Shown here: positions 2,284-47,919 of the stretch, piece by piece
Numbering within the stretch: the stretch's first letter is position 1
Layout of the letters: every line of letters starts with the position of its first letter
Source: a virus
Taxonomy: Duplodnaviria; Caudoviricetes
Direction: 5' to 3' (one strand)
DNA: 64,000 nt
Virus record (IMG/VR): IMGVR_UViG_3300025924_000020
Location: 1 to 64,000 of that record
Made by a program: the position numbers and the translations under genes
The notes under the pieces: model-generated
What the model was told of the DNA's origin: nothing
The model's database searches: none
What the model saw: the letters and a program-made list of their open reading frames with translations, nothing else

Positions 2284-3513
2284 ATGTCAGTTTACAGTAG
2301 GAACCTATCTGGTTTAAATCAAAAAGTAATCGTTGGTACTAATGCCAGCTATACATCATCCACCACTTTTAACGCCTTTATTACAGCATCTGCTGAAGGT
2401 GAAGTTGGTGTATTCCTTGCAAGTGGGGCTTTGAAATCAACAGCTCTTGCCGCAGGTGATCAATTTTTCATCGCACAAAAGCGTGACGGGTTTGTAAATA
2501 AAACCCCAATTTTGAACTTCAATGACATTTTCCGCAAGTTGCGTACAGCTTATATTGCCCCAGTAACTGAAGTAGTTACTGTAGGTTATGTAGGTAGTGG
2601 TACAAACAACCTGAGCTATGACTTCTCATTAGCTAGCAATACCAATACTTTGACGTTTGGAATTACTGCTCGTGACTTCACACCAGGTAATCAACCTTTC
2701 CCAGTACAAGAAGGATATGCAACTGTAAATAGCACAACTGCTGATCAGTATGCAGTAACTTCAGCAATTGTATCACAATTGAATGGTGAATTAGACTATG
2801 AGCGTGTATATCCTGATAAATTCTGTTATGCAGAAATTTTGACTGATGGTGCAACAGCCGCCCCAACTGGAACTGTAACTACTTTCAGTGTAGTAAACGG
2901 CTCAAACTATGTATCTCCTAACGGTACAGTAACCTCTATCGCAGTAGGTACTTATGTTACCTTCACAGGAGCAATGTATAAAGTAAAACAAATTGGCTTA
3001 GGAGCTGGTAACGACTTCCTATTAGACCGTGTGTTCCAAGGTGCAACTAACGCAGCTTTGGCTCTAGCATCTGTTAAAACAATTACCTTTACCTCTGGTA
3101 CTACTCGTTTGGGTGTACGTTTGACTGGAACTTCTACAGACTTTTCATTCAATGCATTACCTTTCGGCCCATCAGGAAATAACTTCCTAAGCTCTGTGGT
3201 AACTGTTAGTACTCCTTGGGTACTTGGTGCAGGTTCTGGTAACTCGATTTTCCAATTAGAATCAGTGGAAGGTGTTGAATTTGACGGTGTAGGATCTACT
3301 CGTAACGCTCCTTTCCGTGAAGATTATGGTACTCCTTCATTGTTCTCAGTGAAGACTAATACTTACGATCAAATCTTCTTGGATTTGGCCCCTAGTATTA
3401 AACCTTCAGCAGCATTACCTCACTACTCTCAAATCCAGATTGAACGTATTCTGATCGCTACCGTTGTAGGCTCTGGCCTTGGCTCTAGCTTGCAGACAGT
3501 ATTTGGAGTTTAA
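2284..3513 (+). CDS. Structural protein, probably auxiliary capsid/decoration protein
   Basis: Rich in S/T/G/V with beta-strand character; lies in the capsid block and is followed by a terminator. Confidence 0.5.
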   Translation: MSVYSRNLSGLNQKVIVGTNASYTSSTTFNAFITASAEGEVGVFLASGALKSTALAAGDQFFIAQKRDGFVNKTPILNFNDIFRKLRTAYIAPVTEVVTVGYVGSGTNNLSYDFSLASNTNTLTFGITARDFTPGNQPFPVQEGYATVNSTTADQYAVTSAIVSQLNGELDYERVYPDKFCYAEILTDGATAAPTGTVTTFSVVNGSNYVSPNGTVTSIAVGTYVTFTGAMYKVKQIGLGAGNDFLLDRVFQGATNAALALASVKTITFTSGTTRLGVRLTGTSTDFSFNALPFGPSGNNFLSSVVTVSTPWVLGAGSGNSIFQLESVEGVEFDGVGSTRNAPFREDYGTPSLFSVKTNTYDQIFLDLAPSIKPSAALPHYSQIQIERILIATVVGSGLGSSLQTVFGV

Positions 3514-31900: not shown

Positions 31901-34900
31901 GGCTCAACAAGTAATGGAGTCTACTAACACAGATAACAACTTCTATATTGATCCTAGAGTATTTAGTATGGAGAAAGCTCCAACTAATGCTAAGAGAATT
32001 GCTGCCTTCCATGAGTATAGCTTAGAGAAACCACTTGTATTAGCAAATGAGATATTCCCTAGTACTAATATTCACTACCAAGCAGCTAGGGATTATATTC
32101 TTGAAGCTCTTACTTTACGTAAGACTAACAAAGATTTGCTAACGAAAATTAACAAGTTTATACACTTCTATAAATTACAGCACGACTCAGCGCTGTCCCT
32201 TGCACTTGGTAAAGTATCACCTACTAAAGAGCCATATACTTCTAGGTGGAGATTTACAGAGCCAGGAAACACTATTGTTGAGTACTTTAGCAAGTTTATG
32301 AAGAACGCTAAGAAGAATCATCCTGGACTGTTCAATGAACAAGGAATGATACAGAATAAACTACTAGCTAGTATACAAATTCAAACTTTCTCGAATAACG
32401 ATAAGTTAGCTATGTTAACTGTAAATAATGTTACAGATGATAACAATAGCGATCTAGTATTGGCTTGGAATGATTTGCTTAATGCTAAATCAGAGGAAGT
32501 TAGAACCTTAGCCCACGATTTAATTAGATATGCAATTTATACGTCTGCTTTTAATTACAGTCCTACTTCATTTGCAGACTTGATTCCAACTGATATCTGG
32601 AAAACAACTGGATTGGCTAATTATTGGGAAGACAATAGAAATTCTAGTATTGACAATGAAGGTCTACTACTTAATTTTGTTAGACATAATTACAAAAAGA
32701 TTAAGTTCTTCCCTCAATTCTTTATTACCTCTAATGGTAGATCACAATCTATCATAAAATCAAGTAGGGTAATGGATGATAAAGGTATACTTCAAGCTTT
32801 TCAAATTAGTAAGGAATACAAGCAGGCTGAGGTATTACCTAGATTCGCTATTGTAAAAGGAAGATTGTATGAACAATCACCAGCCAATCCATATTCCTAT
32901 AAACAATTACAAAGTGCTGGTGGAGATAACTTTTATGAAGTATCAACAGATGGAAGAAATCTTTCAAGAAATCCAGTAAACAAAGATGATGGCTCTCCTA
33001 ATCCCTGGAAGAATGCTATTGTACGTAAAGATGAAGAACTAAAAACTACTGATCCTAGACTACAAGTTGAGAATAGGCTAAGAACTTTTGAGCTAGGTAC
33101 TTTAGAAGGTAAACCTCAAACCGATCAAGAAAATGATAACCTTCACAACAACATGATTAATTTTCCTGAAAAAGGAATGGTTAATGGTGGTGAGACATTT
33201 GAAGAAGCTTCTGATCGTGTAATTTCTCTAATGAAAGATTTAACTAAGAATGCTGCAAATAACAGTGTTATAGTAACTCACAATGCTGTATTTGGAATTA
33301 TTAAAGTATGGGATCAAGAAGGTAGGCCAGATTCTCTAAATAAAGAGCAGAGAATAAAATATACCAAACAGGATAACACAGTAGCAACTGGTTCACACTT
33401 TACAATTAAGACTAGTAAAGGAAAATTATTTGTGGTTAGGCATGGTGAAACCACAGATAATGTAGCTAAAGTGTTTAGAACTCCATCAGCTCAGCTTACT
33501 CAGAAAGGTATAAAGCAGGCTGAAACTGCAGCTAAGGCACTAGCTATATTCCAGATCCCAATGATTATTACGTCACCAATGGAAAGAGCTGTAGAGACTT
33601 CTAGAATCATTTTAAAAGCTCAAGGGGAAGTACAGAAATTCAATCAACCTGCTTTGTCAGATAGTGATATAATAGCTACAAATCCATTTATAGAGTACTA
33701 TCTACCTAACCAAAGCAATGATCCTAAAACTGTACTTGAACATCTTATTAAAGATGAAACTAATCCAGAAAACAGGCAAGCATTACAACATTTACTTGAT
33801 AACGTATCTAAAATAGACGCTAAAATAGATGTTACTGCAGATGATATGTTGGGTTTTATGGGTAGATATGAAGTCATCACAAATAATGGTAATCTTGTTA
33901 GTTCAGTAGTTAAAATAAACCCTAACACTAATTCCATAGATTCTCAAGCAAGTGCTAGGGCTGTAATACATCATGAATTGGAACATGCATTCACAGTAGG
34001 TGTGTTAAAGAATCCACAGACTGAATTGGAGAAAAACTTCAACACAAATTTAAGTAGAGTATTAGAAGAAGCTAGACAAAAATTAGGTATAGTCTACTAT
34101 ACTGAAAATAAATTTGAATTTATAGCTGAGTTAGCTTCAAATGAAGCCTTTAGACAGAAACTTAGAGGGGCCGACTTGTGGAGTAGAATTATTCGTTCAA
34201 TACGCAAGGTATTAGGAATGAAAGACTCCTACGATAAACTTATAGAACAAAGGTATGAAGTTATTTCACAAGGAGAAAAACTAGAAAGAAGTAGTGGAGT
34301 ACTGGGTAAACCTGAAAATAAAAAACCAGGTAAAAAGCAGTTAACTATTTTTGAAAGCATGTTATCTTCTCTGGACTCTAGAGTTAGAGAATTAAAGAGA
34401 AGAAGAGGTAAAGAATCTGCTATAGAAACTGAAGCTGAATTAAAAGTACTCAAAGAACTAGCTAAGAAGAACGAGTCTGCAATGGCAGTCAGATACTTAG
34501 TGTATGTCAATAAGGAAATAGCTAAGCTTAAATCTATCTATGACTTGATGGATAAGACTCCAGAGAAGTTGAATGCTAAATTAATAGCTCCAATGTATGA
34601 TCAATTACTATCATACAATTTACTTGACGAGTTACTGAAAGATGCTAAGACCAACCCAGATGCGTATGTGGGTAAGACTGGTGATATCAAGCAATTTATC
34701 ACTGAAGTAAATAATCTAAGAGGTGAAGTGTCTGATTTACGACTAAAATTAGAGCACCTTATTCCATATAGAGTAGCTAGTTTCATTAAAGATAATATTC
34801 GTCAAGGTCAGAGCTTTGAAGAGGTAGTAGATTCCCTTAAAGTAGCAAATGGTGATGTAAGCTATATAGCTAGATGGTTAACTCCATTTATTGAAGTGAA

Positions 34901-37250
34901 TGATGACACTGTTAAAGCATTTGCTCAACGTTATGCTGAAATTGATATGGAAGCGTATCGTAAGACTCAAGAGGAATTATACAAATTTGATAAAGTACAG
35001 CAGAAGACTACTGTTAATTTAGGTAGCAACAGACGAGTAACAATAGAGTATACTTCAACTGGTGTAAATAAGGCTCTTGATGATTATGACAAGTGGTTAA
35101 AAAAGAAGGGAAAGAACCCAGGTTCTATTAGAGATAAATTTGATCCTATCCTAGATAAAGCCTCCTTTAATAAGGATACGAGTGAAGGTATTTCTTTTAT
35201 AGCTCCTTGGACTAAGGAGGGTAAAGCAATCCTTTCCATTAAAGAAGGATCAGAAGACTATCCGTTAAAGCAGTTGTATGAAACTATTGTTCTAAATTAT
35301 CTCAAGTCTCAAGAAGAAATTAAACTTCCATCTCAACGCCCAGGATTACGTATACCAACTATTGGAAGAGATGTAATGGAAGGATTCTTGAAAGAAAAAG
35401 GTATTAAGGAGACTGCTGGTATGATGAAAGAGCAATTCCTGAATAACTTCATTGAAAGATTCGATGATAATGAGTATCAACAAGTAGACCAACATGGTAA
35501 TGTAATTAAGGCTATTCCATTACGCTATACTTCTAAACAGGATGGTAAGGATGGTAGATTAAACCTAAACGAAGTAAGTTTAGATGTAGCTTCCACCACT
35601 ATGTTATTTCGTCATGAAATGATTAAAAGACCTATGCTTCTAGCAATACAAGATGATGTAGAATTAGCTAAAACACAATTGGCTCAGCGTGAAGTAATGC
35701 AAACTAAACGCATTGAAGCAAGTGGTTTAACTCCATTCCTATCTTCTGAAAGAGAAGGTGTCGTATTAGAGAATGGCAAATATCAGACTATAAAAGGTTT
35801 AGAATCTAAAGCTTACAATGCTTTTCAAGACTTGATTGATCGTAAACAGTACGGTATAGTTAAGAAACGTGAAGGAGATATCAAAATTGGAGAGAAGAAA
35901 GTATCAGCTTCTAAAGCCCTAGATGCTTTCTTAAGATTCAGTGGATTTAGAATCATGTTTGGTAAAATTGCTATTCCTTTAGCTAACTGGAGTGTTGGTG
36001 AACTCACAATGATTAAAGAAATGATTGGAGGGAATATTATTGATTACAAAGATTATCTCTATGGACAGAAGAAGTATAATCAAGTAGCTCTTTCATCACT
36101 TTCTGATTTAGGAAGAAGAGCTAAACAAACTGAGTGGGGTAAGTTATTCACTTACTTCAACCCAATGGATAATCTACGTCCAGTTAATACACTAGGAATA
36201 GACACGACTTGGATGAGAACAGTATGGCATAAGATTATCTCTACTGGAGGTCATACAGTTGAGTATAAACTAGCGGTAAACGCTTTAGGAGCTGTAATGA
36301 ACAGGTTTAAGGTAGTTAATCCTGAAGGTAAGTTAGTCCCTATGGATCAGGGAATACACATCTCTGATGCTGGTAAATTAACTCTAAAATCAGGTTATAA
36401 ATATGCTGGAAAACAAGGTAAGCAATATGAAAAGCCTAAGACTGAAATTAGTGACAAGGATATTAACGAAGTAATACAATATACTCTACGTACTTATCAG
36501 CTAATGAACGGTGTGTATAATCAAAGTGATAAATCAGCTGCTCAAGCTTATACAGTAGGCCGTCTAGTAACCTTTATGCGTAATTGGTTAGTTCCAGGCT
36601 TACAAGCTAGATGGAATACAAAGCATTCAGATCAAAGATTAGGTATGGAGAATGAAGGATACTACATTTCTTCTTTAATAGCCTTCAATAATATTTATGG
36701 TAAGAACGGATTCTTGAAGGGTACATTGGATTCTCTCAAGATGCTGTTCTGGTTAGGAGCTAGTGATCCTACAACTCTACTTTTACCTAATGAATTAGCT
36801 CTTTCTCCTGAAGAGCAAGATGATTTGATCAATATGCGTAAAGCCAATATCAGAAAGACCCTATTTGAACTTTACATGATTGCTGGATTAGGTTTGCTTA
36901 TCTTTGCTGGATATGATGACGATGATGATAGTTACATGAAGTATATGGCAGCTAGAATCAAACGTGAATTAACCACTTATTATGATCCTACTACAGCTTG
37001 GGATGTGTTAAGATCACCTACAGTAGCCCTTTCAACTATAGAAGCTACTTCTAAATTGTTAGGTACAATGACTGATGGTGGGTGGAATTATCTTACAGGG
37101 AATGAGCAAGAGATGATTAAGTCAGGAGCTTACAAGGGATACGGTAAAGCAGAAGCAGCTTTCTGGAGAGCTTCAGGATTAGATTTCATGAAGCAGTTTG
37201 AGGATATAGATCGTAAGACAGATTTTGTACTTAAAGGAGCATACAGATAA
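22905..37250 (+). CDS. Giant virion RNA polymerase polyprotein (4781 aa) with two zincin-like HExxH motifs and a histidine phosphatase domain
   Basis: YRIPT...GLDFDVDK catalytic DxDxD (DFDVD at 30987-31001), HEAGH (26874-26888), HELEH (33972-33986), RHG (33438-33446). Confidence 0.88.
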   Translation: MSDGKDKQYTNIRLAGGESSPVNTPYNGSNLGLNYIPGTPGDPSGVEAYLNENQGLAHTFTNWAAQSLSGAVLGTIESASYLADLEQLKDKIQGSEQEYDNWLAKAMREAKENVKEAAPIYRSKEGQETFSPGSRSFWTSNSPDVISSVLSLLIPGAVAGKAGKMAAAGFKFGEAAQAGSELVAATLTSRYAESTMEANQVFQDGYKQYLQQRMPDEQARELAGQAASRTFNTNWILAIQDLYQYNSILKGFGKAAKAKSLLGIAGETAGQMISEGAEEGLQYVFSEEAKKAGANKGHGYFGDEFWNQRLSDYITSDEFKTNVALGAVGGGVFGGVGPAVQKGADMLRKQKSDIIDSLAKERANLMNDFGTSKKIDSDRLANNALQHLANGKLDKWIDTVEELKKVPDLEPDTRRDLDQHKDELTELVNINSQIKDSKIPKDLQSTAVADHYDVMRSTRLGKELEGKLNEQYNTLPKLGLPENLLTLKKEKINLEAIKELATKEPAYAPLAQMLANKFQDNLTALEPNKDLRRDLETQLITPKDKELVLLNKQIALNNSHVRQLKNKIAKYSTPEGVAQLSAEKAQKTANEVAKAAINKPNVTATEIKQAQSTVTDPQVQQQLGEKLNQIVEEQKDNNKATVDSELSKLEELPQEVLPTPENFSPEMMEQSPEDITPDMLEPNPEASLEPSEVQKTAASFGIGNEILSQLEVEKPTPKQKAVTSKAKTKERVRNTQLEESTAKSWLKEYQSHKDKDGNWVEDRDPLGFPIEQQYFAADGSLVPAHKIFATDENGVLLINTPQIKVGDKVLLVREDSFPYTITKGFKPTSDLNSVINVYQVDKNGHKIGDKPLFQLDSADSPNLSPAQQASNLRLRQQITVWGPNELVTTIQAKNIGTVKRGTNLQSISVLEHDYMGDNYVKLPHGAILGIVDHQGHFTFKGDNIVSLPKQTQDKLDELMLNYAKDAENLIGSTIVARTAPDGSYRMETLTYRQMTPEETKYVKDNLASSFKSNDFTNLKKVMYFPELSTGYFIAKDKKGAAKTPDLFTLPKATKNNRITLFKSGTGKYTLGIPLKSSQTGNRVWTTLEGNDIQNFLSNKPASITFHAIVEGKYAKRKEVRTPEQYASILSTMNSLIDSQSRQVDFDQVNKEALYTDPVTNQEYTNYYDFLKATNTVQTYLRGSNTIGFGQDNSFSYGSTTVYLDSSPKDIKTDIDPQTEELEKVEQTPPPSAPIELGPTTPISPEEIEEEFGPKYKHFSFENTTFNVIGEKELQWFKNNYGEEFLDIAIGVDKFIGANGVEAFGSYYNALVTLAQYAPEGTTYHEAGHFVFDPKNKLITKLEREKILKEAKKIYGELKDNYLEEKIMEDFERYKLSDGKYLPEVSRTKSFFSRILQFIKKLLGYKTEIQKLFEKIDTPNLSIEDRKTLYENRSKLVDPDQILNKRLPGFISSRYEQEALISARSKAIAIASEGLKQVSDVTKFLSNSINLTKILDQVKDYYARLAQNLEAVGDKRNKEQTLQLMTLNAMGVTKTPGYEKYQGSWDDITYGPIKEDGFKSKLLQVFSDLGFVVKYDLDKVEAQEQDEAERIYDVDSSLINPSSSISNRVRLLLHSIPSPVVDSKGQVIDSQKTLFGDIKPLDFRSADAMLALKLSDAIDPYERLQSLAKLNPIARVILNKLDEVKSSGDNQTFTEVMVKYRRDSNDKKTILLQEKEVFVPVAERGPDGQETTRVYTSRFIDANRNSVFRTILNNWRSEAERVNLITPTGELTTKAKKIATDFASLKAKQNTIAFEPLLSQFQTILKELGVTLPDGLIAELQSLDTQYVKAVQQAKARELKLKSLVFGENSASLEALINTFNSDIQVSSPFDGKTNVLEKLAKASAIYYDSVKTGAYLNENGDLEYPINLPSYLSEFASLLNSPDKLNEWVNTLEQDEFYKDNQFIATLKQAIRGKQLSKIRFSLLSAIRDKDSDAKMFGDRSEIDSLVSRLVSYFNNETHNDKSEYASIFIGTPANKAKDPMMNLPKKRGDEAYAFLKKVLANTVLNEISRIQNIKDSLGKPRVGNNPLPQEINNLKNATKFIYLPELNEIEGLADSLSNGEISADNYKTAKAKQEQVINNWIDQKYDSFLNLLESNDIIRVNRKSGRVVNISNTRIPKDIINLYGTPAKFLKEFFYNDTAYRLEMSKVFMGDLAFYKPGVDDYFKRMYQLVTPGYKAYTDKETSIVRGIYPAQKKIELPEINSLKELGLSDSVANNYKRGVNKTDAQSLSTIHGYRTLAKALGLWNDFTHEKIYQVAWKYNEPARQQIKKLTLLGEITEQEAKDLNGILFNLDLQPLKPFQYNDRFIDLPNGKRMLLKEQFKDSITPILPELANTHQGYKELHDYMLGNGFDVLSAEDAVKVGSYGVLDMTQPAEAWQKRRVSLDDIRFPQFMPSKKKEETSGTQLHKLIMGDVQDKTDYSLNDTKISGVDLKADYNKLWVEKLENGVTKLKDLLGMGDDFKFSNNPNKKIEQLQKLQLVLKQELNQRDLNDNYKDAINLTLSQLKGIEFNMPLSFPQITKPFEGIIVKLFDKYVTSQKSTGYTAVNLADFGVQKSDELRYVRNENGQLVEAEIGIAINPSEFGLRYGEHISPTGRVIWDKLNNNQQEALQYIAYRIPTSNKSSMLPVRVAMILPKTMNNIVMIPGETTLQMGLDFDVDKTQLLRRVTKDGKIDKAHVDTKLFNIYWSVLTNKEHLNAMLTPLSTARLEAIKDNYTKRGILTSETNQSPFTLEADIKAQTKNREEKVKVGGASRAATAHSVIQMLGEEAIQINPLFDIKIARKGPLRFGHMTSQDGSLISENLGEIQQAALDAAKTPLLAIFNITKKLLSPAETLVMLGYDLRTVTDFFMQPVVREWSSNYIKENEDDLAATESFLEAHPEVGSVINNLRKQGSRPTLSLDALSQALTSKVGENPIHDAAVLLELGNLLQAGKLLSNFTNVLSLDTFGDTSSIESLQVMAQQVMESTNTDNNFYIDPRVFSMEKAPTNAKRIAAFHEYSLEKPLVLANEIFPSTNIHYQAARDYILEALTLRKTNKDLLTKINKFIHFYKLQHDSALSLALGKVSPTKEPYTSRWRFTEPGNTIVEYFSKFMKNAKKNHPGLFNEQGMIQNKLLASIQIQTFSNNDKLAMLTVNNVTDDNNSDLVLAWNDLLNAKSEEVRTLAHDLIRYAIYTSAFNYSPTSFADLIPTDIWKTTGLANYWEDNRNSSIDNEGLLLNFVRHNYKKIKFFPQFFITSNGRSQSIIKSSRVMDDKGILQAFQISKEYKQAEVLPRFAIVKGRLYEQSPANPYSYKQLQSAGGDNFYEVSTDGRNLSRNPVNKDDGSPNPWKNAIVRKDEELKTTDPRLQVENRLRTFELGTLEGKPQTDQENDNLHNNMINFPEKGMVNGGETFEEASDRVISLMKDLTKNAANNSVIVTHNAVFGIIKVWDQEGRPDSLNKEQRIKYTKQDNTVATGSHFTIKTSKGKLFVVRHGETTDNVAKVFRTPSAQLTQKGIKQAETAAKALAIFQIPMIITSPMERAVETSRIILKAQGEVQKFNQPALSDSDIIATNPFIEYYLPNQSNDPKTVLEHLIKDETNPENRQALQHLLDNVSKIDAKIDVTADDMLGFMGRYEVITNNGNLVSSVVKINPNTNSIDSQASARAVIHHELEHAFTVGVLKNPQTELEKNFNTNLSRVLEEARQKLGIVYYTENKFEFIAELASNEAFRQKLRGADLWSRIIRSIRKVLGMKDSYDKLIEQRYEVISQGEKLERSSGVLGKPENKKPGKKQLTIFESMLSSLDSRVRELKRRRGKESAIETEAELKVLKELAKKNESAMAVRYLVYVNKEIAKLKSIYDLMDKTPEKLNAKLIAPMYDQLLSYNLLDELLKDAKTNPDAYVGKTGDIKQFITEVNNLRGEVSDLRLKLEHLIPYRVASFIKDNIRQGQSFEEVVDSLKVANGDVSYIARWLTPFIEVNDDTVKAFAQRYAEIDMEAYRKTQEELYKFDKVQQKTTVNLGSNRRVTIEYTSTGVNKALDDYDKWLKKKGKNPGSIRDKFDPILDKASFNKDTSEGISFIAPWTKEGKAILSIKEGSEDYPLKQLYETIVLNYLKSQEEIKLPSQRPGLRIPTIGRDVMEGFLKEKGIKETAGMMKEQFLNNFIERFDDNEYQQVDQHGNVIKAIPLRYTSKQDGKDGRLNLNEVSLDVASTTMLFRHEMIKRPMLLAIQDDVELAKTQLAQREVMQTKRIEASGLTPFLSSEREGVVLENGKYQTIKGLESKAYNAFQDLIDRKQYGIVKKREGDIKIGEKKVSASKALDAFLRFSGFRIMFGKIAIPLANWSVGELTMIKEMIGGNIIDYKDYLYGQKKYNQVALSSLSDLGRRAKQTEWGKLFTYFNPMDNLRPVNTLGIDTTWMRTVWHKIISTGGHTVEYKLAVNALGAVMNRFKVVNPEGKLVPMDQGIHISDAGKLTLKSGYKYAGKQGKQYEKPKTEISDKDINEVIQYTLRTYQLMNGVYNQSDKSAAQAYTVGRLVTFMRNWLVPGLQARWNTKHSDQRLGMENEGYYISSLIAFNNIYGKNGFLKGTLDSLKMLFWLGASDPTTLLLPNELALSPEEQDDLINMRKANIRKTLFELYMIAGLGLLIFAGYDDDDDSYMKYMAARIKRELTTYYDPTTAWDVLRSPTVALSTIEATSKLLGTMTDGGWNYLTGNEQEMIKSGAYKGYGKAEAAFWRASGLDFMKQFEDIDRKTDFVLKGAYR

Positions 37251-37898: not shown

Positions 37899-38549
37899 TT
37901 AATTAGTCTCTTTATCATGATGATCAATTTCAAGTAGTACATCTCTTCTACACATAATCTTATCTAATTCCTCATACGAATAGGGCATAAGGTTGTTAGT
38001 ATCTACACCTACATCCATCGTGCGTATGTTCTTAGTATAGTACTGATCACCAATCCAATTAGGATTACCTATTTCTGGTCTCATAGCATCTAATGTACCA
38101 TGAGAATGACCATATAACATCCAAGCTCCTTTATGTGAGTGATTCCATACACGCATAGCATAATGACAAAGAACAATGAATCTACCATTGATCTTGATCT
38201 CTTTATAATGCTGTACAGACTTGAATAGCTTTTGTATATCTTCTCTATTACGCTCAATGTGGTGATCATGATTGCCTAGAATAAGGTGTATATTCTCACA
38301 GTTTAGTCTAGACCAGAAATCTTCAATAGCCTTGAATCCTCCAAACGACCAATCACCTAAGTGATAAAGAATATCATTTGGTTGTACTAGTTTATTGAAA
38401 TTCTCAACTAGTTTATCATTGTGTTCTTCTAGTGTAGCAAATAGTCTACAACCACTCTTGTCTTCCCATTCAGAAACTCCAGCTACTATGCTTTTGTGGT
38501 TGTAATGGGTGTCTGAAGTGAACCAAATATTAGGTGATGTATTGCTCAT
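37899..38549 (-). CDS. Calcineurin-like metallophosphoesterase
   Basis: SDTH, LGD, GNHD, CHY and GHSH motifs. Confidence 0.92.
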   Translation of the reverse strand: MSNTSPNIWFTSDTHYNHKSIVAGVSEWEDKSGCRLFATLEEHNDKLVENFNKLVQPNDILYHLGDWSFGGFKAIEDFWSRLNCENIHLILGNHDHHIERNREDIQKLFKSVQHYKEIKINGRFIVLCHYAMRVWNHSHKGAWMLYGHSHGTLDAMRPEIGNPNWIGDQYYTKNIRTMDVGVDTNNLMPYSYEELDKIMCRRDVLLEIDHHDKETN

Positions 38550-39054
38550 ACTTCTTTCTGTTTATTTTGTTGTAACTCTTGTGCATATCTTTAATTACTC
38601 TAATAGGTATCCATCTACCCGTCTTAAAGAATCTAATAAAGTTCCTGAAGATAGATTTCCACAAAGGTATATCAAGAAATAGAATGTACAACTTAACAGT
38701 AAAGTCTTTGTACTTCTTTTTAATCAATTTATCTATGTAGATATCAATATAGCTCTCTCTACAATGAGTATTGTCTACAAGAATATGTGAGATACTATCA
38801 TCAATAAGTAGTGCTTTAAAGTTATCATAGAAAATCTGACTAACTTGAGTCTCTGTGTTTCTACGATGTAGATATGGTTTAGGAAAGTGATCCTCCCTGA
38901 TCTGATCTCTACTAACTACGCCTAGTCCACGATCACCTGGCAATATACCAAATGTGCTCTTGTACTTTTCAACATAGGTAGACTTACCAGCACAGGGAGG
39001 ACCTGCTAAAATGATTATTGTTTTAAGCATTGTCTTCCACGACTTGATCTTCAA
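38530..39054 (-). CDS. Polynucleotide kinase-like P-loop protein (AAA_33)
   Basis: GPPCAGKST Walker A, VSRDQIR, VDNTH, R-N-xx-R lid. Confidence 0.8.
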   Translation of the reverse strand: MKIKSWKTMLKTIIILAGPPCAGKSTYVEKYKSTFGILPGDRGLGVVSRDQIREDHFPKPYLHRRNTETQVSQIFYDNFKALLIDDSISHILVDNTHCRESYIDIYIDKLIKKKYKDFTVKLYILFLDIPLWKSIFRNFIRFFKTGRWIPIRVIKDMHKSYNKINRKKYEQYIT

Positions 39055-40444
39055 TATTCACTTCCCCAGTCTTACTATCCTCATCTAATTGCTTAGATTC
39101 CTTCTCAAGGAAACGTTTACTCTTCAGCTTAAAAGCTGAAAATGTATCTTTCCCATCGATACGTACTACAATACCTTCTGCTGGTACTTTATTGGTACAA
39201 TAAGGACAATCTTTTTCTAGATATGAGCTAGATAGCAAACTCAATAGTTCGTTACCCCATTGATCTACACCCTTTATGAAAGTTTGATTGAATATTTCTC
39301 CAGCTGTACCTTCATTAGCCCAACGATTTAGCTTTCCGTAGTACAACTCTTTTACGGTTTCTAATTGATACTTCTCACAATATCCTTTAATTTGATTCCA
39401 GCTAAATTCGATTGTATTGCCATCTGGTTTAGTGTAAGTGATACGATAGACTAGGAATTTATGTTGTGCAGCATCAGTTTCTACAGGTCTTAGATCATCA
39501 TTCCTTACACTACCAACCATACCAGTGTTACAACCGTAGTCATATGCTTTCTGTATAGCTTTACCAGAAGGTAAGTATCCTACAATCTCACCATAAATAG
39601 TGATACCTTGTTCGATCTTATCTTTAATTTCATTCAACACTACTTTCCAAATATCTTCATTATAGTATCCAGCGGTAGCTTCTTTGTTTACATATTGGTT
39701 TTTGATAACTGACCTACTTGAATAGAGTGTGTCATAAACCTTATCAACAATATTGAAGCCTAGAAGCTTACCTATTTTCTCCCAAACGGTGAGTTGTTTA
39801 TTAACTAATACATTAGCAAACACTGCTGAAGTACCATGCCACTTATCTGTAATACAGATGATATCTTCTGGTTTGAATAAATGTAGATTCTTAGCTAATT
39901 GATTAGTATCTACATGGAATCTGAATTGATTTGGTACAAGTTTATCAAATCTCTTAAGTTTCTTGTTGAACCTAGATTCCTTAGCTGTAGTAGCATGTTG
40001 ATGAACAATCTTGTACTTCTTACAAATGTTTACTCCATCAATATCAGTGAACTCATCACCTTCTTTTAACTGACCTCCCCAATTACCCATTAAAGGATAT
40101 AAAGTATCAATAGGTGCTATGTAACCGGTAGATATAACTCCCTTAAACTTAATCGCTTTTACTCTACCTGTGTCTTCAAAAAATCCAGGTTTAGCAGTTT
40201 GGTCGTAATTCAAGTTACTATGTCTAAATTCATTATTCGCACATAGATATGATGCTGCAATTCTACATTCAGCAGGAAAAAAGAGATATAACTGATTTTC
40301 ATCAGCGTCTTTCTTTGTAAGAACATCATTACCGAATACAGTTACTTTGACTAAATTATCCAATCCATCCACTTTTTGCTTAGGTGGAAGTTTGACGACT
40401 GTACATGCATAATTCTTAGAATCTTCTCTTATTTCTAATTTCAT
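39023..40444 (-). CDS. RNA ligase (Rnl2 / DRB0094-like)
   Basis: Motif I TDKWHGTS, IYGEIVG, EGIVVR, FKLKS; N-terminal OB-like domain. Confidence 0.85.
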   Translation of the reverse strand: MKLEIREDSKNYACTVVKLPPKQKVDGLDNLVKVTVFGNDVLTKKDADENQLYLFFPAECRIAASYLCANNEFRHSNLNYDQTAKPGFFEDTGRVKAIKFKGVISTGYIAPIDTLYPLMGNWGGQLKEGDEFTDIDGVNICKKYKIVHQHATTAKESRFNKKLKRFDKLVPNQFRFHVDTNQLAKNLHLFKPEDIICITDKWHGTSAVFANVLVNKQLTVWEKIGKLLGFNIVDKVYDTLYSSRSVIKNQYVNKEATAGYYNEDIWKVVLNEIKDKIEQGITIYGEIVGYLPSGKAIQKAYDYGCNTGMVGSVRNDDLRPVETDAAQHKFLVYRITYTKPDGNTIEFSWNQIKGYCEKYQLETVKELYYGKLNRWANEGTAGEIFNQTFIKGVDQWGNELLSLLSSSYLEKDCPYCTNKVPAEGIVVRIDGKDTFSAFKLKSKRFLEKESKQLDEDSKTGEVNIEDQVVEDNA

Positions 40445-41760: not shown

Positions 41761-42011
41761 ATTTTCTCAAATCTAGCTGGATAACACCATTGTATCTTAT
41801 CTCCATCTGGTAATGTAGCTCCAGTTTCCCAGCAGCTAATACTACCAAAAGGAGATTCAATACCGACATCTATATGGTCGTGCTCATTATGAGTTAAGAC
41901 TTGTTTTACTTCATACTCTTTCTGAGTAAAAGTAGGACCATTCTGATTACCTTTAAGTGGATTAGTGTTGATTACTCTAACTTTATCTCCAGGTTTTAAT
42001 TCTGTTTTCAT
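41757..42011 (-). CDS. Hypothetical protein (KOW/SH3-like start)
   Basis: LKPGDKVRVI; coupled to its neighbours. Confidence 0.45.
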   Translation of the reverse strand: MKTELKPGDKVRVINTNPLKGNQNGPTFTQKEYEVKQVLTHNEHDHIDVGIESPFGSISCWETGATLPDGDKIQWCYPARFEKI

Positions 42012-42523
42012 GGTTTATAAAATACAACTGTTACTTTACAGTTTTTTAAATGTTCTTGAATCATTTTCTTTACTATATTCCAATCTCCTCCTGCAAGATG
42101 ACAACCAATCAAAGGGAGTCCAATATGTCTACCTTTAAAAACATGATTCATCTTCTTAAGACATAACTCAAGAGCTGCATAATCTAAATCCATCTTACCT
42201 ACTTTTCTACCAGTAATGTCAAATTGAGTGTAGCAGTTGGTTATGATTAGAGTTTTACCTGAAGGTAAATTTATCCCTTTAGGGTGATAAACTTCTTTTT
42301 TATATATAATTCTAGGCTGATAGTCTATACTACCAAGCTTATTCATATCACCTTTGTACCCTTCTCTTTCAAGTTAGAATTTGTCAGCTCCAAACGCCTT
42401 AGCCATTTGAGGAGCTAATCCAGCTCCCATAATACACTGACAATTACAGCCATGAGCAATAACATCAAACTTACCTTCTTTAGCTAGCACTATAAGGTCA
42501 CCTTCTATTTCCTGGTAGTCCAT
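42008..42523 (-). pseudogene. Macrodomain (ADP-ribose processing) gene interrupted by an in-frame TAA at codon 50
   Basis: Translation from the ATG at 42523 reads MDYQEIEGDL...IAHGCNCQCIMGAGLAPQMAKAFGADKF*LEREGYKGDMNKLG...NCYTQ...GLPLIGCHLAGGDW. The stop is at 42374-42376. Confidence 0.8.
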
Positions 42524-43415: not shown

Positions 43416-44023
43416 GGAATGTACAAGTTAGTTGGATTATTTTTGTGGATTTCATGCTCCTTGTGATGTGAGATTGTAAAACTTGCAAGGTTGAATGGTT
43501 GAGTAATAATATGCCAACCAGATTTTGATGGTAAGATAGCTAGCACCTTGTAATCTCTGTTATTTATTTGCTTCTGCAGTGAAGTTATGAAATCTGCTAC
43601 ATCGTCAGCTGCTTTTCTATCAGGATTATCAATGTCAATTAACCACCTTTTATCAATCTCAGAATGATATTCACCACACACGGAATCGTAAGCTTTCCTA
43701 ATACTATAGAAATCTCCATTAGACATTTGGTTGGCTATTTTCTGTAATACATGAAATCCAGCTTTCTGAAAGTTTCTAGGATTAAGGTTGATACTTACCC
43801 TAGCTTCAAACAATTGAGCTAGTTTGATCATTTCCTCTTTATGTATATCTAGCTTTTCTTGTGAAGTGATATAATAGGCTTTGATTAAGCGGGAGTTGTT
43901 ATTACTTCCACCTAATCTTTCACCTTTATGGTCTTTCTTCCTTTGAAGAATCTGTACGAAATAGAAACAGTCCTTATGAGGAAATTCAAGTAATGGTTTA
44001 ATTAAATCAAAATTATCAACCAT
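43412..44023 (-). CDS. Conserved phage protein with AEP (primase-polymerase)-like motifs
   Basis: WLIDID and SKSGWHII resemble AEP motifs I and II. Confidence 0.4.
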   Translation of the reverse strand: MVDNFDLIKPLLEFPHKDCFYFVQILQRKKDHKGERLGGSNNNSRLIKAYYITSQEKLDIHKEEMIKLAQLFEARVSINLNPRNFQKAGFHVLQKIANQMSNGDFYSIRKAYDSVCGEYHSEIDKRWLIDIDNPDRKAADDVADFITSLQKQINNRDYKVLAILPSKSGWHIITQPFNLASFTISHHKEHEIHKNNPTNLYIP

Positions 44024-45539
44024 AACTAGCTAATCTATCTCTGATTTCCTGAAGAGTGGTAGTTTTCTCTAGCTTACCATCTTTAAAGACAGTTTGTAGC
44101 AGCCAAGTATTTTCTTGCTCCCAAGTACATTGATCTTGGACGAATAAATTACCATTTTCATGTTGACCTACTCGTAACAATCCTTTCTTACTTTTCTTAG
44201 TTCCATCATCAGTAATTGGGTCTTTGAAGATTTCTCTTCTTTCAGTCCATTGTGACGGTTCAAGTGCTTCAGGAGATCTGCCTTCAGGGTAGCCCGTCAT
44301 TTCAACTTCTCCATATGTCGCTTTCATTGCGAAGCCAAAAGTATCCCTAGTATTGTGCTGATAAGTATAAGAGCCAATCCCAAGTACAACATTCGTAGAT
44401 GCAAATCCTTTTGCCTTAAGTCTTTCACATATTTGCCTCGCACAGTCAAGGGTGATAGAATCACCGTAGATAGCACCAATATGAAAATCCAATTCTTTAT
44501 ATCCATATTCATTTATTTTTCCTCCAAACAAATCCCAGAGAAGTTCAATGACTCCTTTTCTTTCTGCTTCAGAAATAGCTTTACCGCCTTTATCATACCA
44601 GCCTATTGTATCTTTATGAAGATCATCTCTTCCACAAAGAATATCTACTGGATTGCCTGAATCGGGTCTAATTACTAGTTTACCATCTCTTGCAAGAATT
44701 TGTTCTTTGATTTTAGGAAGTATTTCAGTTAGAACTTTCCAAAGATCCCAAGTATCACTAACAATACTGAGAATTCCAGTAGGATAAAGCTTAAGCAGCC
44801 TGCTGAAAGTGTCAATTTCATTTTCTTTGATGCCCATACACATAACACTGTGCTCTGTAGCAGGAACACTTGCACCAATGAGTCCACTAGCACCATAAGA
44901 CTGTTCAAGCTGGTAAATTGCTGGAATAGTATCAGTGCCTGTAAACGAGAGTAAATGACCCATGCCAGAAAGAATACTAGACTCAATGCTAGACATTCCC
45001 CGCATAGAGAAATCGTGTCCTTGCCACGGTACAAAGTCCACAGATCCAGTGGTTTCCTTTGCATATTTCGATAGTAATTTCTTGTATTCATAAGCAATTG
45101 TTGCTGAAGTGGTAGGTTGCCATAGCATTGCAGACATTAGTGTCTCAACGTAGTTAGTGAGCCAATAAAAATCAGGATGTGTATTCTTGATTGTGAGTAG
45201 TGGTACTCCAATAGGACACAGTGTTCCCTCGGGAAGAGCTTTAATTTCTAATGGTAGATAACCTAGATCGTGTAAAGCTTCAATATGTTTACTATCCACA
45301 TTGATATGTCTTTTATACTCTTCTATTACTTGTGTTTTGGGTAGTGCAAAGAAATGACGAGTAAATTTATCAGTTAGATACTGTAGAATGAAGTGCTGTA
45401 CACCAAATACAACTACCTTATCTATTCCAGGAATCCTACTCTTTCTTGGAGTGAGGTTAGAATAGATCAATGTTGTACCTTCTGGATACATCTTATGATG
45501 TTCTGTTTTGTAAAAATCCGTATATAGTAGTGGATTCAT
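44016..45539 (-). CDS. Nicotinamide phosphoribosyltransferase family (NadV/Nampt; Namat-like in NARP1)
   Basis: TDFYKTEH, HDFSMRG, ATEHSVM, SIVSDTWD, IRPDSG, IYGDSIT, KKSKKG. Confidence 0.93.
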   Translation of the reverse strand: MNPLLYTDFYKTEHHKMYPEGTTLIYSNLTPRKSRIPGIDKVVVFGVQHFILQYLTDKFTRHFFALPKTQVIEEYKRHINVDSKHIEALHDLGYLPLEIKALPEGTLCPIGVPLLTIKNTHPDFYWLTNYVETLMSAMLWQPTTSATIAYEYKKLLSKYAKETTGSVDFVPWQGHDFSMRGMSSIESSILSGMGHLLSFTGTDTIPAIYQLEQSYGASGLIGASVPATEHSVMCMGIKENEIDTFSRLLKLYPTGILSIVSDTWDLWKVLTEILPKIKEQILARDGKLVIRPDSGNPVDILCGRDDLHKDTIGWYDKGGKAISEAERKGVIELLWDLFGGKINEYGYKELDFHIGAIYGDSITLDCARQICERLKAKGFASTNVVLGIGSYTYQHNTRDTFGFAMKATYGEVEMTGYPEGRSPEALEPSQWTERREIFKDPITDDGTKKSKKGLLRVGQHENGNLFVQDQCTWEQENTWLLQTVFKDGKLEKTTTLQEIRDRLASYG

Positions 45540-46363
45540 TATTCAAATACGTTAAATGTTGTTACTATGTTACTATTGTAATGTTCTTGAAATGAATTAG
45601 TAGTAAATACTCTAGTGAAGTACTTACCTAACTCATCAAATCCATTACTAAAAATACCGTGTGATACTGCTAAGAATAAATCTCCAGCATTTCTCTCTTT
45701 TAATTTCTTTGCTAGTTCAATAAATGTTCTACCTCCCATACATATATCATCCACGATAAGTACTGGCCTTCCTTTGAAATCCTCTCTAGAAAGTTCAATA
45801 GAGTCGATATTACCTGTTGAAATAGATCTTGATTTATTAGCTGATACTACCTCTCTTTGCATTGGTAATGCCTGAGCCAGCTTAAATATCTTCTTGTATG
45901 CTCCTGCATCTGGTGATAATAAAATAAGATTATCATCATTAGTTGCCCATCTTATTACGGTTTCTATGAATTTGTGATTTGTTTCTACACTCACTCCTTG
46001 TAGCAATGCTGGTGTTACGTCACTGTGTACATCAAAACAACGGTAATGGATTCTGGGGTTTCGCAGAATTTCAGTAATAGTCATTAGACTAAAACACTCT
46101 ACTTCAGAAAAATCTCTATCAGCTTGTTGATACGGAAAATAGGGACAATGAACCGCAAATTTATTTACTCCCATCTTAAAAAGTAGGTCTTTCACTATTA
46201 AGAAGAAAATTAAATTCTCAGTAGTATTCAGTCTTACCTGAACCGTTAACAGTTCATTTGGGACAATCAGTGCTTTTAATTGAACATGTATCTCTCCTCC
46301 TGGAAATTTCCATGCTTTGTATTGTGGAGTTTCTGTAACTCCTGGTCTTAAATCTAATATCAT
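45539..46363 (-). CDS. PRPP-synthetase family protein (Adps-like in NARP1); likely start at MILDLRP
   Basis: FPGGE, PYFPYQQADR, DVHS, SPDAGA, IVDDICMGGRTF, SHGIFS. Confidence 0.9.
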   Translation of the reverse strand: MILDLRPGVTETPQYKAWKFPGGEIHVQLKALIVPNELLTVQVRLNTTENLIFFLIVKDLLFKMGVNKFAVHCPYFPYQQADRDFSEVECFSLMTITEILRNPRIHYRCFDVHSDVTPALLQGVSVETNHKFIETVIRWATNDDNLILLSPDAGAYKKIFKLAQALPMQREVVSANKSRSISTGNIDSIELSREDFKGRPVLIVDDICMGGRTFIELAKKLKERNAGDLFLAVSHGIFSNGFDELGKYFTRVFTTNSFQEHYNSNIVTTFNVFE

Positions 46364-46373
46364 AATTTTTTGT

Positions 46374-46619
46374 TTATTGTGAACCCCAATCGAAAGCACT
46401 CGCAAATAGAGAGTCATCCTCTCTGTTATCGTCCCAATAGCTATTGCTTGACGAGTAAGTTTTGAAAGGTTTCTTGAGAGCTGCTACCTGTTTTTTAGTT
46501 AAGAATTTAGTTTTCTTATACCACTGTATTACACTTCTATGAAATAGACTTACTTTAGTGGGAAACTTAAAATCATATTTAAGTTCTATTTCTAGTTTCA
46601 AGTCATCTTCTACATTCAT
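46374..46619 (-). CDS. Hypothetical protein
   Basis: ORF with A-rich start region; LTKKQVAAL motif. Confidence 0.5.
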   Translation of the reverse strand: MNVEDDLKLEIELKYDFKFPTKVSLFHRSVIQWYKKTKFLTKKQVAALKKPFKTYSSSNSYWDDNREDDSLFASAFDWGSQ

Positions 46620-46633
46620 AATTTAAAAATTTG

Positions 46634-46716
46634 AGCTTCGGGCTGGACTCGAACCAGCAATCTCCGTATAGGATAAGCCTACACTACATGGTATTTTACC
46701 ATTAAACTACCTAAGC
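46634..46716 (-). tRNA. tRNA-like gene with aberrant elongated anticodon arm (isotype undetermined)
   Basis: Acceptor GCTTAGG/CCGAAGC, D arm TAGTTTAATGGTAAAAT, perfect T arm GCTGG-TTCGAGT-CCAGC, 28-nt anticodon arm, no CCA. Confidence 0.7.
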
Positions 46717-46940
46717 ATAGTCCCACTCACGCTCTTGTGGCAACTATTATACAACATTTTTATGGCCTTAATTTCAGCAAGCGACTTCTCTTAGTCTGAA
46801 GTAGTTGTATTAACTTTTAATAATTGAAAAAACTATTGCAGGTTATCATTCTGCATTGCTACTCGTATGAGTAGATCTTGTCACATAGCATAGAGGTAAA
46901 ACGTCAATTAAAACTCTATGGACAATTAAAGGAAATAGTT
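46717..46940 (-). ncRNA. Structured non-coding region with multi-stem elements
   Basis: Stems AACTATT/AATAGTT, TTGTC/GACAA, CATAGAG/CTCTATG, CTACTC/GAGTAG, GCAG/CTGC, ATACAAC/GTTGTAT, CTTC/GAAG; no ORF in the track. Confidence 0.5.
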
Positions 46941-46943
46941 TAG

Positions 46944-47090
46944 TTAGAAAATCTCGTTTCTTGTTAGTTTCTCTTCTAGAACTATGCACCAAGCTTTAAT
47001 GTTTCTTCTTACTCTTGGTGAGTCTAGGTATTGTTGTAGAAGTTCGTCTGAGAAGAACTTCACATCATAATGAATGAATCTCAGGTCCAT
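46944..47090 (-). CDS. Small ORF, 48 aa (MDLRFIHYDV...), not in the ORF track
   Basis: Manually translated open frame overlapping the end of the upstream gene. Confidence 0.4.
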   Translation of the reverse strand: MDLRFIHYDVKFFSDELLQQYLDSPRVRRNIKAWCIVLEEKLTRNEIF

Positions 47091-47268
47091 CTTTGATTTC
47101 TTTTATGTTACTTCTAGCTACCAGCTTAAGTAACGATTTAGTTTGTTTGTTTACTTCCTTAGAATGAGTTATGAAGATAAAACCATCTATGTCTCTAGCT
47201 GGATACCACACATCTGCTTCATAATCTCCATGTTTCCCAGGTAGTTTTTTGATTAGTTTTATTTGCAT
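47065..47268 (-). CDS. Hypothetical protein
   Basis: 67-aa ORF. Confidence 0.45.
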   Translation of the reverse strand: MQIKLIKKLPGKHGDYEADVWYPARDIDGFIFITHSKEVNKQTKSLLKLVARSNIKEIKDGPEIHSL

Positions 47269-47277
47269 AAGTTTGAT

Positions 47278-47309
47278 TAAATGAAAAGGAGTGAAATAAT
47301 CACTCCTTT
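47278..47309 (-). terminator. Intrinsic terminator-like hairpin
   Basis: Minus strand AAAGGAGTG-ATTATTT-CACTCCTTT then TCATTT. Confidence 0.6.
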
Positions 47310-47316
47310 AATGAAA

Positions 47317-47386
47317 ACTATAGGTGGGGTACTCTCCCACAACCCCCTCAAGTATCGAGGACTCTGTATTTTGGAGCTACTATAAT
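47317..47386 (-). ncRNA. Degenerate tRNA-shaped RNA (70-nt cloverleaf)
   Basis: ATTATAG/CTATAGT 7 bp; TA; GCTC/GAGT D stem; CCTC-GATACTT-GAGG; GGGTT; GTGGG-AGAGTAC-CCCAC. Confidence 0.6.
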
Positions 47387-47391
47387 TATAT

Positions 47392-47919
47392 CTATAATAC
47401 TAGTCTGATCTTTTTTCGTATTTTGTGTATTCTATGGGCAAGTAATTGCCTATAAATATGTTGTTCTTCGGCTATCTCACCTTTGGGATACCCCTCTTCA
47501 AGCCTTTGTACAATTTGCTGTTCTTGATTGTTGAGAATAGATTTTAGCTTATCTTTTAATAGGAGATAATCCATCTCTATCTCTTGTGTGGGTTGACCTT
47601 TGTGTACATATTGCCATTCAAGCACATCTGGATCATGATCCTCATATACACTATGTCTGATTTTTGGGTAAATAATGCCCTTAAACATGTACTTACCGCT
47701 TCTTATTCTATTAAACCAAACTCTTTTTACTTTACCCAGTATAATTCCTTTATCCTGTTCAAATAAATTAGTTCCGTGGTTCTTATGCCAACTAACATAA
47801 GCATCATGCACAACATCCCTATAATCATAAGCCATGTTGCTTAGCTTACATAAATAGAAGGCATAACTACTAGCTTGCCAATATAGTTTATTGTTCATTA
47901 TCCTGAACAACTTAGACAT
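47392..47919 (-). CDS. ECF sigma-factor-like protein
   Basis: Region-2-like RDVVHDAYVSW; region-4 HTH LNNQEQQIV...EGYPKGEIAE...RIHKIRKKI. Confidence 0.7.
   Translation of the reverse strand: MSKLFRIMNNKLYWQASSYAFYLCKLSNMAYDYRDVVHDAYVSWHKNHGTNLFEQDKGIILGKVKRVWFNRIRSGKYMFKGIIYPKIRHSVYEDHDPDVLEWQYVHKGQPTQEIEMDYLLLKDKLKSILNNQEQQIVQRLEEGYPKGEIAEEQHIYRQLLAHRIHKIRKKIRLVL

Follow-up and report, generated by a model that had tools for sequence, protein, structure and literature searches.

Phage tRNA genes are at present explained by codon supply or by the replacement of tRNAs that host defence nucleases have destroyed. A stretch of the virus IMGVR_UViG_3300025924_000020 (Duplodnaviria; Caudoviricetes) raises the question whether tRNA-shaped RNAs are also kept in a phage genome without decoding, or whether such shapes are tRNA genes in decay. 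The record is complete and comprises 94,962 bp with 35.8% G+C; the window analyzed here is its first 64 kb (64,000 nucleotides), and the locus lies at positions 46,634 to 47,386 on the minus strand. A preliminary description had reported four elements at this locus, here called (a) to (d), each closed by a 7-bp acceptor-like helix, and an extra hairpin. All five were found in the sequence as described. Probably, although by no means certainly, the locus is a tRNA slot in which this phage, instead of working tRNAs, keeps RNAs of tRNA shape that are under selection but do not decode; (a) and (d) would be derived from tRNA-Thr(UGU), (b) would belong to an older, group-wide family, and (c) would be promoter-like. 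Selected RNAs of this kind would fit neither of the two explanations. The features of the locus are as follows.

47392 to 47919, minus strand: 175-aa gene, which precedes the tRNA slot throughout the phage group (tblastn synteny)
47317 to 47386, minus strand: element (a), a 70-nt cloverleaf (minimum free energy (MFE) fold, geometry scan, ortholog in the relative L093)
47285 to 47309, minus strand: intrinsic-terminator-like hairpin directly after (a), 10 bp with a 5-nt loop, then a U-run
46944 to 47090, minus strand: conserved 48-aa gene directly 5′ of (b)
46826 to 46947 (junction 46940-46831), minus strand: element (b), a four-way-junction RNA (folding z-score, covariation, covariance model R1)
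46749 to 46810, minus strand: element (c), a sequence-conserved, putative promoter-like or leader block (identity to L093 without covariation)
46717 to 46747, minus strand: extra hairpin abutting the 5′ end of (d) (z = -1.93; 81% identical to L093)
46634 to 46716, minus strand: element (d), a tRNA body with a 28-nt hairpin as anticodon arm (RF00005, 44.7 bits)

In the direction of transcription the order is 175-aa gene, (a), terminator-like hairpin, 67-aa gene, 48-aa gene, (b), (c), extra hairpin, (d), 81-aa gene, PRPP-synthetase-like gene and NAMPT-like gene. All elements lie in a minus-strand block of replication, nucleotide and counter-defence genes.

Elements (a) and (d) in a variable tRNA slot

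Relatives of the locus were found with a 183-aa protein (p183) encoded two genes upstream, which gave ~100 homologs with ~50% identity, many of them on contigs of 92-100 kb. We took 17 related loci for comparison; relatives within IMG/VR were only distant. Searching with the PRPP-synthetase-like protein gave no relatives, and of the 80 loci reached via NAMPT only one had the gene order in common. Pattern scans of IMG/VR for (a) and for (d) produced no match, and the 107 stretches matching a pattern for (b) all proved to be chance matches when their hairpins were checked.

The gene order common to the relatives is exonuclease, p183, p114, p175, a variable stretch, and then NAD and RNA-repair genes. 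A tRNA is found in relatives within 10-55 nt 3′ of the homolog of the 175-aa gene. In L085 and L086 this is a tRNA-Met starting 10-54 nt after the p175 homolog (66 and 50 bits); tRNA-Met was also found in the variable stretch of L201 and L203, and tRNA-Thr(TGT) in that of L088 (6484-6557), L092 (7281-7354) and L212 (8610-8683). Judged from these sequences, the stretch is a variable tRNA slot conserved in the phage group, and relatives carry ordinary tRNAs in it. Since the preliminary description had made no use of relatives, these tRNAs constitute independent evidence.

The relatives also carry unusual tRNA genes. In L084 (7335-8131), the tRNA-Met that follows the p175 homolog is interrupted within its anticodon loop (CTCA | ... 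| TAA) by ~460 nt; the insertion contains an open reading frame (ORF) of the PD-(D/E)XK type (PF11645) on the opposite strand, and Rfam shows no group I intron there. A tRNA-like gene in L092 (4425-4514, 54.5 bits) has a 34-nt middle arm and was missed by ARAGORN. L083 carries a Leu(UAA)-like gene with a damaged anticodon arm (9391-9479, 32.7 bits), and two genes of L089 (7833-7903 and 6369-6430) have borderline scores of ~29 bits.

Conservation was determined by comparison with the nearest relative, L093, whose six flanking proteins are 42-65% identical to those of the window. Coding nucleotides are 61.5% identical overall; at 4-fold degenerate sites of the six flanking genes (n = 137) identity is 37%, which is close to saturation. 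L093 has orthologs of every element in unchanged order, and outside the anticodon arm of (d) these are 67-87% identical: 73% for (a), 67% for (b), 81% for (c), 81% for the hairpin, and 73% and 87% for the 5′ and 3′ parts of (d). The anticodon arm of (d) reaches 47% and is effectively unalignable. Substitutions are concentrated in the loops of the elements. Because this identity far exceeds that of neutral sites and stems are kept by compensatory change, the conclusion that (a), (b) and (d) are kept by selection and are not decaying remnants is supported. The preliminary description had proposed the same for the whole cluster; its proposal stands for these three elements but not for (c). Behind its copy of (a), L093 contains ~450 nt of additional non-coding sequence (2985-3440), including a terminator-like hairpin.

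The MFE fold of (a) is exactly the 70-nt cloverleaf that had been described: a 7-bp acceptor-like helix, 2 nt, a 4-9-4 D arm, no spacer, a 15-nt anticodon-like arm, 5 nt, a 5-7-5 T arm, and the 7-nt closing strand. It begins 6 nt past the stop codon of the 175-aa gene, and the terminator-like hairpin directly 3′ of it folds with -13.9 kcal/mol (z -5.67, 0/200 shuffles as good). The D loop (CAAAATACA), the anticodon-like loop (GATACTT) and the T loop (AGAGTAC) are all non-canonical; in the L093 ortholog the anticodon-like loop reads GATAAAAA. The GG and the TTC..A that form the elbow signature of tRNAs in the D and T loops, respectively, are absent from CAAAATACA and AGAGTAC. ARAGORN and the Rfam tRNA model RF00005 (E ≤ 10, positions 46300-47700) did not call (a). 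Since folding energy says little about shape, the whole 95-kb genome was scanned for tRNA geometry on both strands. Element (a) was the only cloverleaf in which all positions of the stems were paired, and 12 dinucleotide-shuffled genomes together gave a single match.

The ortholog of (a) in L093 (~2908-2978) retains all 20 pairs as standard pairs in both phages. Two pairs, both in the acceptor, are exchanged on both sides (A:U to U:A and A:U to G:C), and two further pairs show single changes via G-U. By comparison, the T loop differs at five of its seven positions, and the anticodon-like loop over most of its length. Element (a) was also considered as a transcription terminator, since a scan flagged its T arm together with a T-run; this was rejected because the T-run is missing in L093.

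Element (d) was the only gene in the window called by ARAGORN and Rfam; (a), (b) and (c) were not called. It scores 44.7 bits with RF00005 (gathering score 29) and, as described before, combines canonical D and T arms with an oversized anticodon arm, where 24 nt occupy a region of 13 nt in the model. Its body has a 7-bp acceptor carrying an A5-G68 mismatch; TA leads to a D arm with a 4-bp stem and GG in the loop, and the variable loop of 5 nt is followed by a T arm with TTCGAGT and by T as discriminator. The elbow is thus complete (AATGGTA and TTCGAGT) and is kept in L093. In place of a normal anticodon arm, (d) carries a hairpin of 28 nt, in which 2 bp are followed by a 5-nt bulge, a 7-bp helix and a loop of 5 nt; a tandem TGTAG-TGTAG lies within it. 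Hence, the earlier statement that stems are retained and identity loops lost is accurate for (a), whereas in (d) the anticodon arm alone is aberrant. A decoding loop, i.e. a 7-nt loop on a 5-bp stem with U33 and a purine at 37, is found neither in (d), with its 5-nt apex, nor in (a), with GATACTT. The folding energy of (d) is better than that of shuffled sequences (z -2.20), and it ends 14 nt before the next start codon.

The L093 ortholog of (d) (4908-4996) scores 44.6 bits, and its acceptor is identical including the A5-G68 mismatch. The D stem, GCTC/GAGC in the window and GTTT/AAAT in L093, differs by two double and one single compensatory change, and the T stem by one double change; in total, three double and one single changes occurred and no pair was broken. 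The middle arm forms a long hairpin in both phages, but differs in length (28 vs. 33 nt) and sequence, with CTTAT at the apex in the window and GTAAT in L093. Relative to a normal tRNA the insert is 11 nt (16 nt in L093), and the group I intron model RF00028 had no match in the window. ARAGORN found no tmRNA, and neither YrlA, tmRNA nor any other Rfam family beyond RF00005 gave a credible match.

Furthermore, we examined the origin of both elements. A covariance model built from the two copies of (a), R2, matched beyond these orthologs the tRNA-Thr(TGT) of L088 and L092 (E ~1e-5 and ~3e-5; E-values from models built here are rough) and then the L093 copy of (d); it did not match the Met, Ser, Arg or Leu tRNAs of the same loci. 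A separate comparison of the halves of the molecules placed both copies of (a), and the copy of (d) in L093, closest to tRNA-Thr(TGT). The copy of (d) in the window has shifted in composition towards A+T and does not reveal its origin. Element (a) also keeps the anticodon-stem sequence CCTC/GAGG of the L092 tRNA-Thr. Because of the R2 matches, the comparison of halves and this stem, (a) and (d) are best read as derivatives of tRNA-Thr(UGU) that would have lost decoding before the window phage and L093 separated and would have been kept since.

The four-way-junction RNA and the block behind it

Element (b) had been described as a four-way junction with the last arm abutting the closing helix. 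This fold was obtained with a z-score of -2.79 (1/200 shuffles as good): the closing helix P1 has 7 bp, P2 is long, P3 is variable, and P4, with 5 bp, abuts P1; a U-tract follows P1. A consensus calculated by RNAalifold from four copies (window, L093, L084 and L201) contains 18 pairs, 11 of them with compensatory changes. The covariance model R1 then matched 12 distinct related sequences at a (rough) E-value ≤ 0.001, always as a single copy and always on the gene strand. Beyond the first four, matches were found in L083, L085, L090, L091, L207 and L209, and weaker ones in L088 and L210/L211. The whole 95-kb genome contains exactly one copy, at 125.8 bits.

Covariation in related phages, which the reading as structured RNA had implied, was evident in 10 distinct sequences: 14 of the 18 pairs change on both sides, and 99.4% of cells are paired. 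None of 500 shuffles reached this level, and controls with slid pairing reached at most 56%. The ten-sequence alignment was fitted to the model and thus favors the structure; the four-sequence MAFFT alignment gives the same result. In all ten sequences P1 has 7 bp and P4 has 5 bp, no nucleotide lies between them, and a U-rich tail follows; by eye, P2 covaries as well. Conserved sequences are found at the junctions (TAAATGTCC-like, AATAGRAY and AAT) and in the P4 loop (YTGAYAA), and the window copy has all of these. A tentative pairing of UGUC at the junction with GACA in a loop is formed in 95% of cases, with one compensatory event only.

The case is well supported that (b) represents a new, previously undescribed RNA family absent from Rfam. 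Its likeness to tRNA is one of geometry, consisting in the four-way junction and a 7+5-bp stack resembling acceptor and T arm, and cannot be detected in sequence. Either the 48-aa gene or the phosphoesterase gene beside it is always located immediately 5′ of (b). As the constant upstream neighbor, the 48-aa protein could be the protein partner of the (b) RNA. Homologs of the 48-aa gene occur in L083, L084, L085, L087, L088, L089 and L093, and also in L201/L203; the family comprises 48-53 aa and has the motif W..LEEKL.R.E.

Element (c) behaved differently. The 7-bp stem and the 4-bp arm reported for it exist, but its folding energy is ordinary (z = -0.76, 37/200 shuffles as good), and comparison of the window with L093 revealed no covariation supporting the stems. 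Identical runs of 13-24 bases lie where the proposed fold has no pairs, and unpaired parts are conserved as highly as paired ones. For these reasons (c) was rejected as a tRNA-like RNA. The energies of the four elements are divided, with (b) and (d) folding better than shuffles and (a) and (c) not. The 3′ end of (c) is the 22-mer CCATAAAAATGTTGTATAATAG, including TATAAT, which lies at 46751-46746, just past the 3′ edge of the element. This 22-mer occurs exactly in three Clostridia-type bacterial contigs at intergenic promoter positions (L206 2548-2569, L214 7932-7953 and L215 1365-1386), and L214 shows TTGCAA-17 nt-TATAAT. The recurrence may represent convergence on a strong promoter, or chance; signals in the phage genome itself suggest another type of host. 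The block is unique in the phage genome and was therefore ruled out as a repeated phage promoter motif. Its pattern of conservation and the positions of the 22-mer suggest that (c) is promoter-like or a leader, serving (d) and the genes downstream. In L206 the upstream TACAACTAC is shared as well.

The extra hairpin between (c) and (d) (46747-46717) keeps its helix in L093 with a shifted register. It would be either the leader of the tRNA-like RNA (d) or overlap the transcription start. An ORF of 16 codons across the hairpin was rejected, because all differences to L093 are non-synonymous and fall into stem positions.

Alternative explanations and a possible mechanism

One alternative is that tRNA pseudogenes and chance hairpins form neutral debris in a former tRNA slot. 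Relatives have intact tRNAs in the same slots, the anticodon arm of (d) contains the 5-nt tandem duplication TGTAG TGTAG, (a) and (c) have energies like shuffles, and further aberrant tRNA-like genes exist in the clade (L083 9391-9479 and L089 7833-7903). Debris, however, would not be expected to remain 67-87% identical to L093 where neutral sites are saturated at 37%, nor to preserve pairing by compensatory changes in 20/20 pairs of (a), every stem of (d) and 99% of the cells of (b), with substitutions mostly in loops. We therefore regard decay as highly improbable. Even less credible, and in our view scarcely conceivable, is that (d) still serves translation, either as a UAA suppressor via TTA at its apex or after removal of an 11-nt intron. 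Admittedly, the apex loop reads C-TTA-T, ARAGORN in intron mode proposes Asp(ATC) interrupted by an intron of 9 nt, an RNA ligase is encoded by the phage, and the tRNA-Met of L084 is interrupted in its anticodon loop by ~460 nt. However, the 5-nt loop has neither U33 nor a purine at 37, and the L093 apex is GTAAT on an arm of other length. TAA is the commonest stop (39/59 long ORFs), all three stops are in use, and interrupted genes were not seen. A canonical Thr(UGU) loop is not produced in both orthologs by any excision, no group I intron was matched in the window, and we know of no self-splicing introns of 11-16 nt in bacteria or phages. Both versions were rejected, since the apex is not conserved, read-through is not needed and no canonical loop results.

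The blocks might instead act as DNA, i.e. as promoters, operators, or a replication or packaging signal. This would suit (c), which is conserved as sequence without covariation and carries the TATAAT-containing 22-mer that stands at promoter positions in three bacterial contigs, although its single occurrence in the genome does not agree with a repeated promoter motif. For (a), (b) and (d), however, helix changes are compensatory on one strand, the G-U pairs work only in RNA of the gene strand, and (d) matches the tRNA family; as a general explanation a DNA-level role is very unlikely. A more serious competitor, which we consider possible but doubtful, are pure processing or stability modules: RNase P/Z cut sites or protective ends that divide the operon transcript, the excised RNAs being functionless. 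Their positions are suggestive, with (a) between stop codon and terminator and (d) behind the promoter-like block and 14 nt before a start codon; the U-tract follows (b) in all ten family members, and the 7+5-bp top half is conserved in (a), (b) and (d). On the other hand, the stems of mere cut sites should drift in sequence, yet 16/20 pairs of (a) do not vary, members of the (b) family agree in their junction and loop sequences, and (d) has retained its whole elbow (GG, TTCGAGT), although a cut site requires less. Decoys or sponges that host tRNA-targeting defence nucleases bind or cut in place of host tRNAs, as had been proposed before, are unlikely. In their favor, tRNA-Thr(UGU), from which (a) and (d) derive, is a known nuclease target with resistant phage copies (PMC12445682), (a) keeps the CCTC/GAGG anticodon stem of a true tRNA-Thr, and the genes around the locus form a counter-defence island in which NAD salvage, a Macro-like protein and an RNA repair cassette are encoded. 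Guilt by association from neighboring genes is weak, though. The anticodon loop is the recognition site of the classical anticodon nucleases PrrC, RloC and the colicins, and no element has a normal one; an anticodon-nuclease decoy in the strict sense would for this reason be unlikely.

Several observations weigh against selected, non-decoding RNAs as well. Element (a) folds with no more than ordinary energy (z -0.53), and its count of covarying pairs was matched by 124/500 shuffles with one ortholog only; (d) likewise has one ortholog, and its covariation counts are small. Because such two-sequence shuffle statistics are weak, the argument for (a) and (d) rests on their conservation relative to saturated neutral sites and on the fact that no pair is broken. 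With 16/20 of its stem pairs invariant, (a) may be under some other sequence-specific constraint, including one at the DNA level, and it is without the T-loop/D-loop elbow that helps RNase P. Element (b) has no match in Rfam and none to RF00005 at E ≤ 10, so that its tRNA likeness is geometric only. Finally, a TATAAT promoter in (c) fits poorly with a putatively Bacteroidota-like host, which seems to do without Shine-Dalgarno sequences and to use promoters of the TAnnTTTG type.

If the elements are selected non-decoding RNAs, the following mechanism may be proposed. Each would be located at a transcript boundary, (a) before a terminator, (b) with its own U-tract and (d) after the promoter-like block, and all three would have in common a 5-bp arm with an acceptor-like helix stacked on it. 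In tRNAs, RNase P, RNase Z and the CCA-adding enzyme recognize this region. From the stack and its position at transcript boundaries, excision from the operon RNA would be expected, probably by host enzymes, with RNase P acting at the 5′ end and RNase Z or exonucleases at the 3′ end. The excised RNAs would persist as stable tRNA-body RNAs and never enter translation. As to their role after excision, we tentatively rank first the occupation of a tRNA-recognizing factor during infection, i.e. mimicry in counter-defence; slightly behind would come a role confined to defining or stabilizing transcript ends, which is no less simple as a reading, and the remaining probability falls to neither of these. 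Counter-defence is suggested by the surrounding genes and by tRNA-Thr(UGU) being the target of OLD. The P2 OLD nuclease prefers tRNA-Thr(UGU) as a target, is counteracted by phage tRNA-Thr genes, and cuts the anticodon stem rather than the loop (PMC12445682). The anticodon-less bodies (a) and (d), together with (b), might conceivably have become RNA inhibitors or sponges dedicated to host immunity directed at tRNA, such as OLD/PARIS-type Toprim nucleases recognizing the tRNA body and cutting the anticodon stem, but we hold this specific version to be quite unlikely. If true, it would represent a new class of RNA-based anti-defence factor, acting alongside the RNA-repair and NAD-restoring genes of the phage.

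Known analogues and genome context

The closest known analogues are the species 1 and 2 RNAs of phage T4 (rnaC and rnaD), small stable tRNA-like RNAs encoded among the phage tRNA genes and processed with the tRNAs. To our knowledge, these do not decode and have no known function. They resemble the present elements as tRNA-shaped, anticodon-less RNAs in a phage tRNA slot; the likeness is in kind only. At 70-120 nt the present RNAs are smaller; two can be traced to Thr(UGU), and the third is a four-way junction with conserved junctions. A second, comparative handle on RNAs of this type could make the decades-old question of their function testable.

With the canonical phage tRNA-Thr(UGU) (L088, L092, L212; PMC12445682), (a) and (d) have the D arm, variable loop, T stem and slot in common, and (a) also the anticodon stem; unlike it, both are without a readable UGU or a normal anticodon loop, and (a) additionally without GG in the D loop and TTC in the T loop. 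An evolutionary path is thus visible from a working tRNA-Thr(UGU) in relatives to two non-decoding derivatives in this phage and in L093, which offers a clean system for anticodon-less tRNA bodies. The YrlA/Y RNA-like family (RF02553) similarly comprises non-decoding RNAs with a tRNA-like domain, often near RNA repair genes. YrlA, however, ends in a protein-binding stem and has a closed acceptor, whereas in the present RNAs the ends lie in the acceptor-like helix. With RF02553 the best score was 16.7 bits (gathering score 69), overlapping only the T arm of (d), and no Ro60/Rsr gene was seen. Mitochondrial tRNA punctuation and mascRNA-type 3′ ends use cloverleaf-like modules at transcript boundaries, the top half of which recruits RNase P and RNase Z. 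The module and its position are similar, but those systems are eukaryotic or organellar; we know of no bacterial or phage family of tRNA-like processing signals curated in Rfam. The (b) family, with its strong covariation, conserved junctions and fixed gene neighbor, can be modeled, sought in metagenomes and tested.

The elements had been placed upstream of NAD and RNA-repair genes, and this is indeed their location: both gene groups follow downstream.

44016 to 46417, minus strand: adjacent PRPP-synthetase-like and NAMPT-like genes (NAD salvage pair), downstream of (d)
42008 to 42346, further downstream: weak Macro-domain match near the NAD pair
37899 to 40444, minus strand: T4-style RNA repair cassette of calcineurin-like phosphoesterase, P-loop kinase-like protein and RNA ligase
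22905 to 37250, plus strand: single 4,781-aa ORF within the plus-strand block

The PRPP-synthetase-like/NAMPT-like pair resembles the NAD+ reconstitution pair by which phages have been described to evade NAD-depleting defences. Within the repair cassette, the RNA ligase belongs to PF09414 and PHROG 968, and the kinase-like protein matches AAA_33 below cut-off. An AAA ATPase gene is also present among the genes further downstream, together with the Macro-like protein and the repair cassette. In relatives, RNA repair genes are likewise found near the tRNA slot, and their replication modules contain group I introns (RF00028; L089 3237-3463, 51 bits, and L209 1307-1535, 87 bits).

Shine-Dalgarno sequences precede only 3 of 68 genes, and several genes have TAnnTTTG just upstream; this combination suggests a Bacteroidota-like host. 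The region showed no DNA similarity to isolated phages (INPHARED), and the proteins of the structural block that were tested belong to no PHROG family and have only patchy matches to isolated phages. The phage family thus appears uncharacterised. The only other tRNA-family match in the 95-kb genome is an 86-nt tRNA-Met(CAT) on the minus strand at G000:C1:68511-68596 (L002 1500-1585), with 37.7 bits. It has the canonical loop CTCATAA, a long variable arm (3 bp and a GAAA loop), a poorly paired D arm, and a C1-U72 mismatch as in initiator tRNA.

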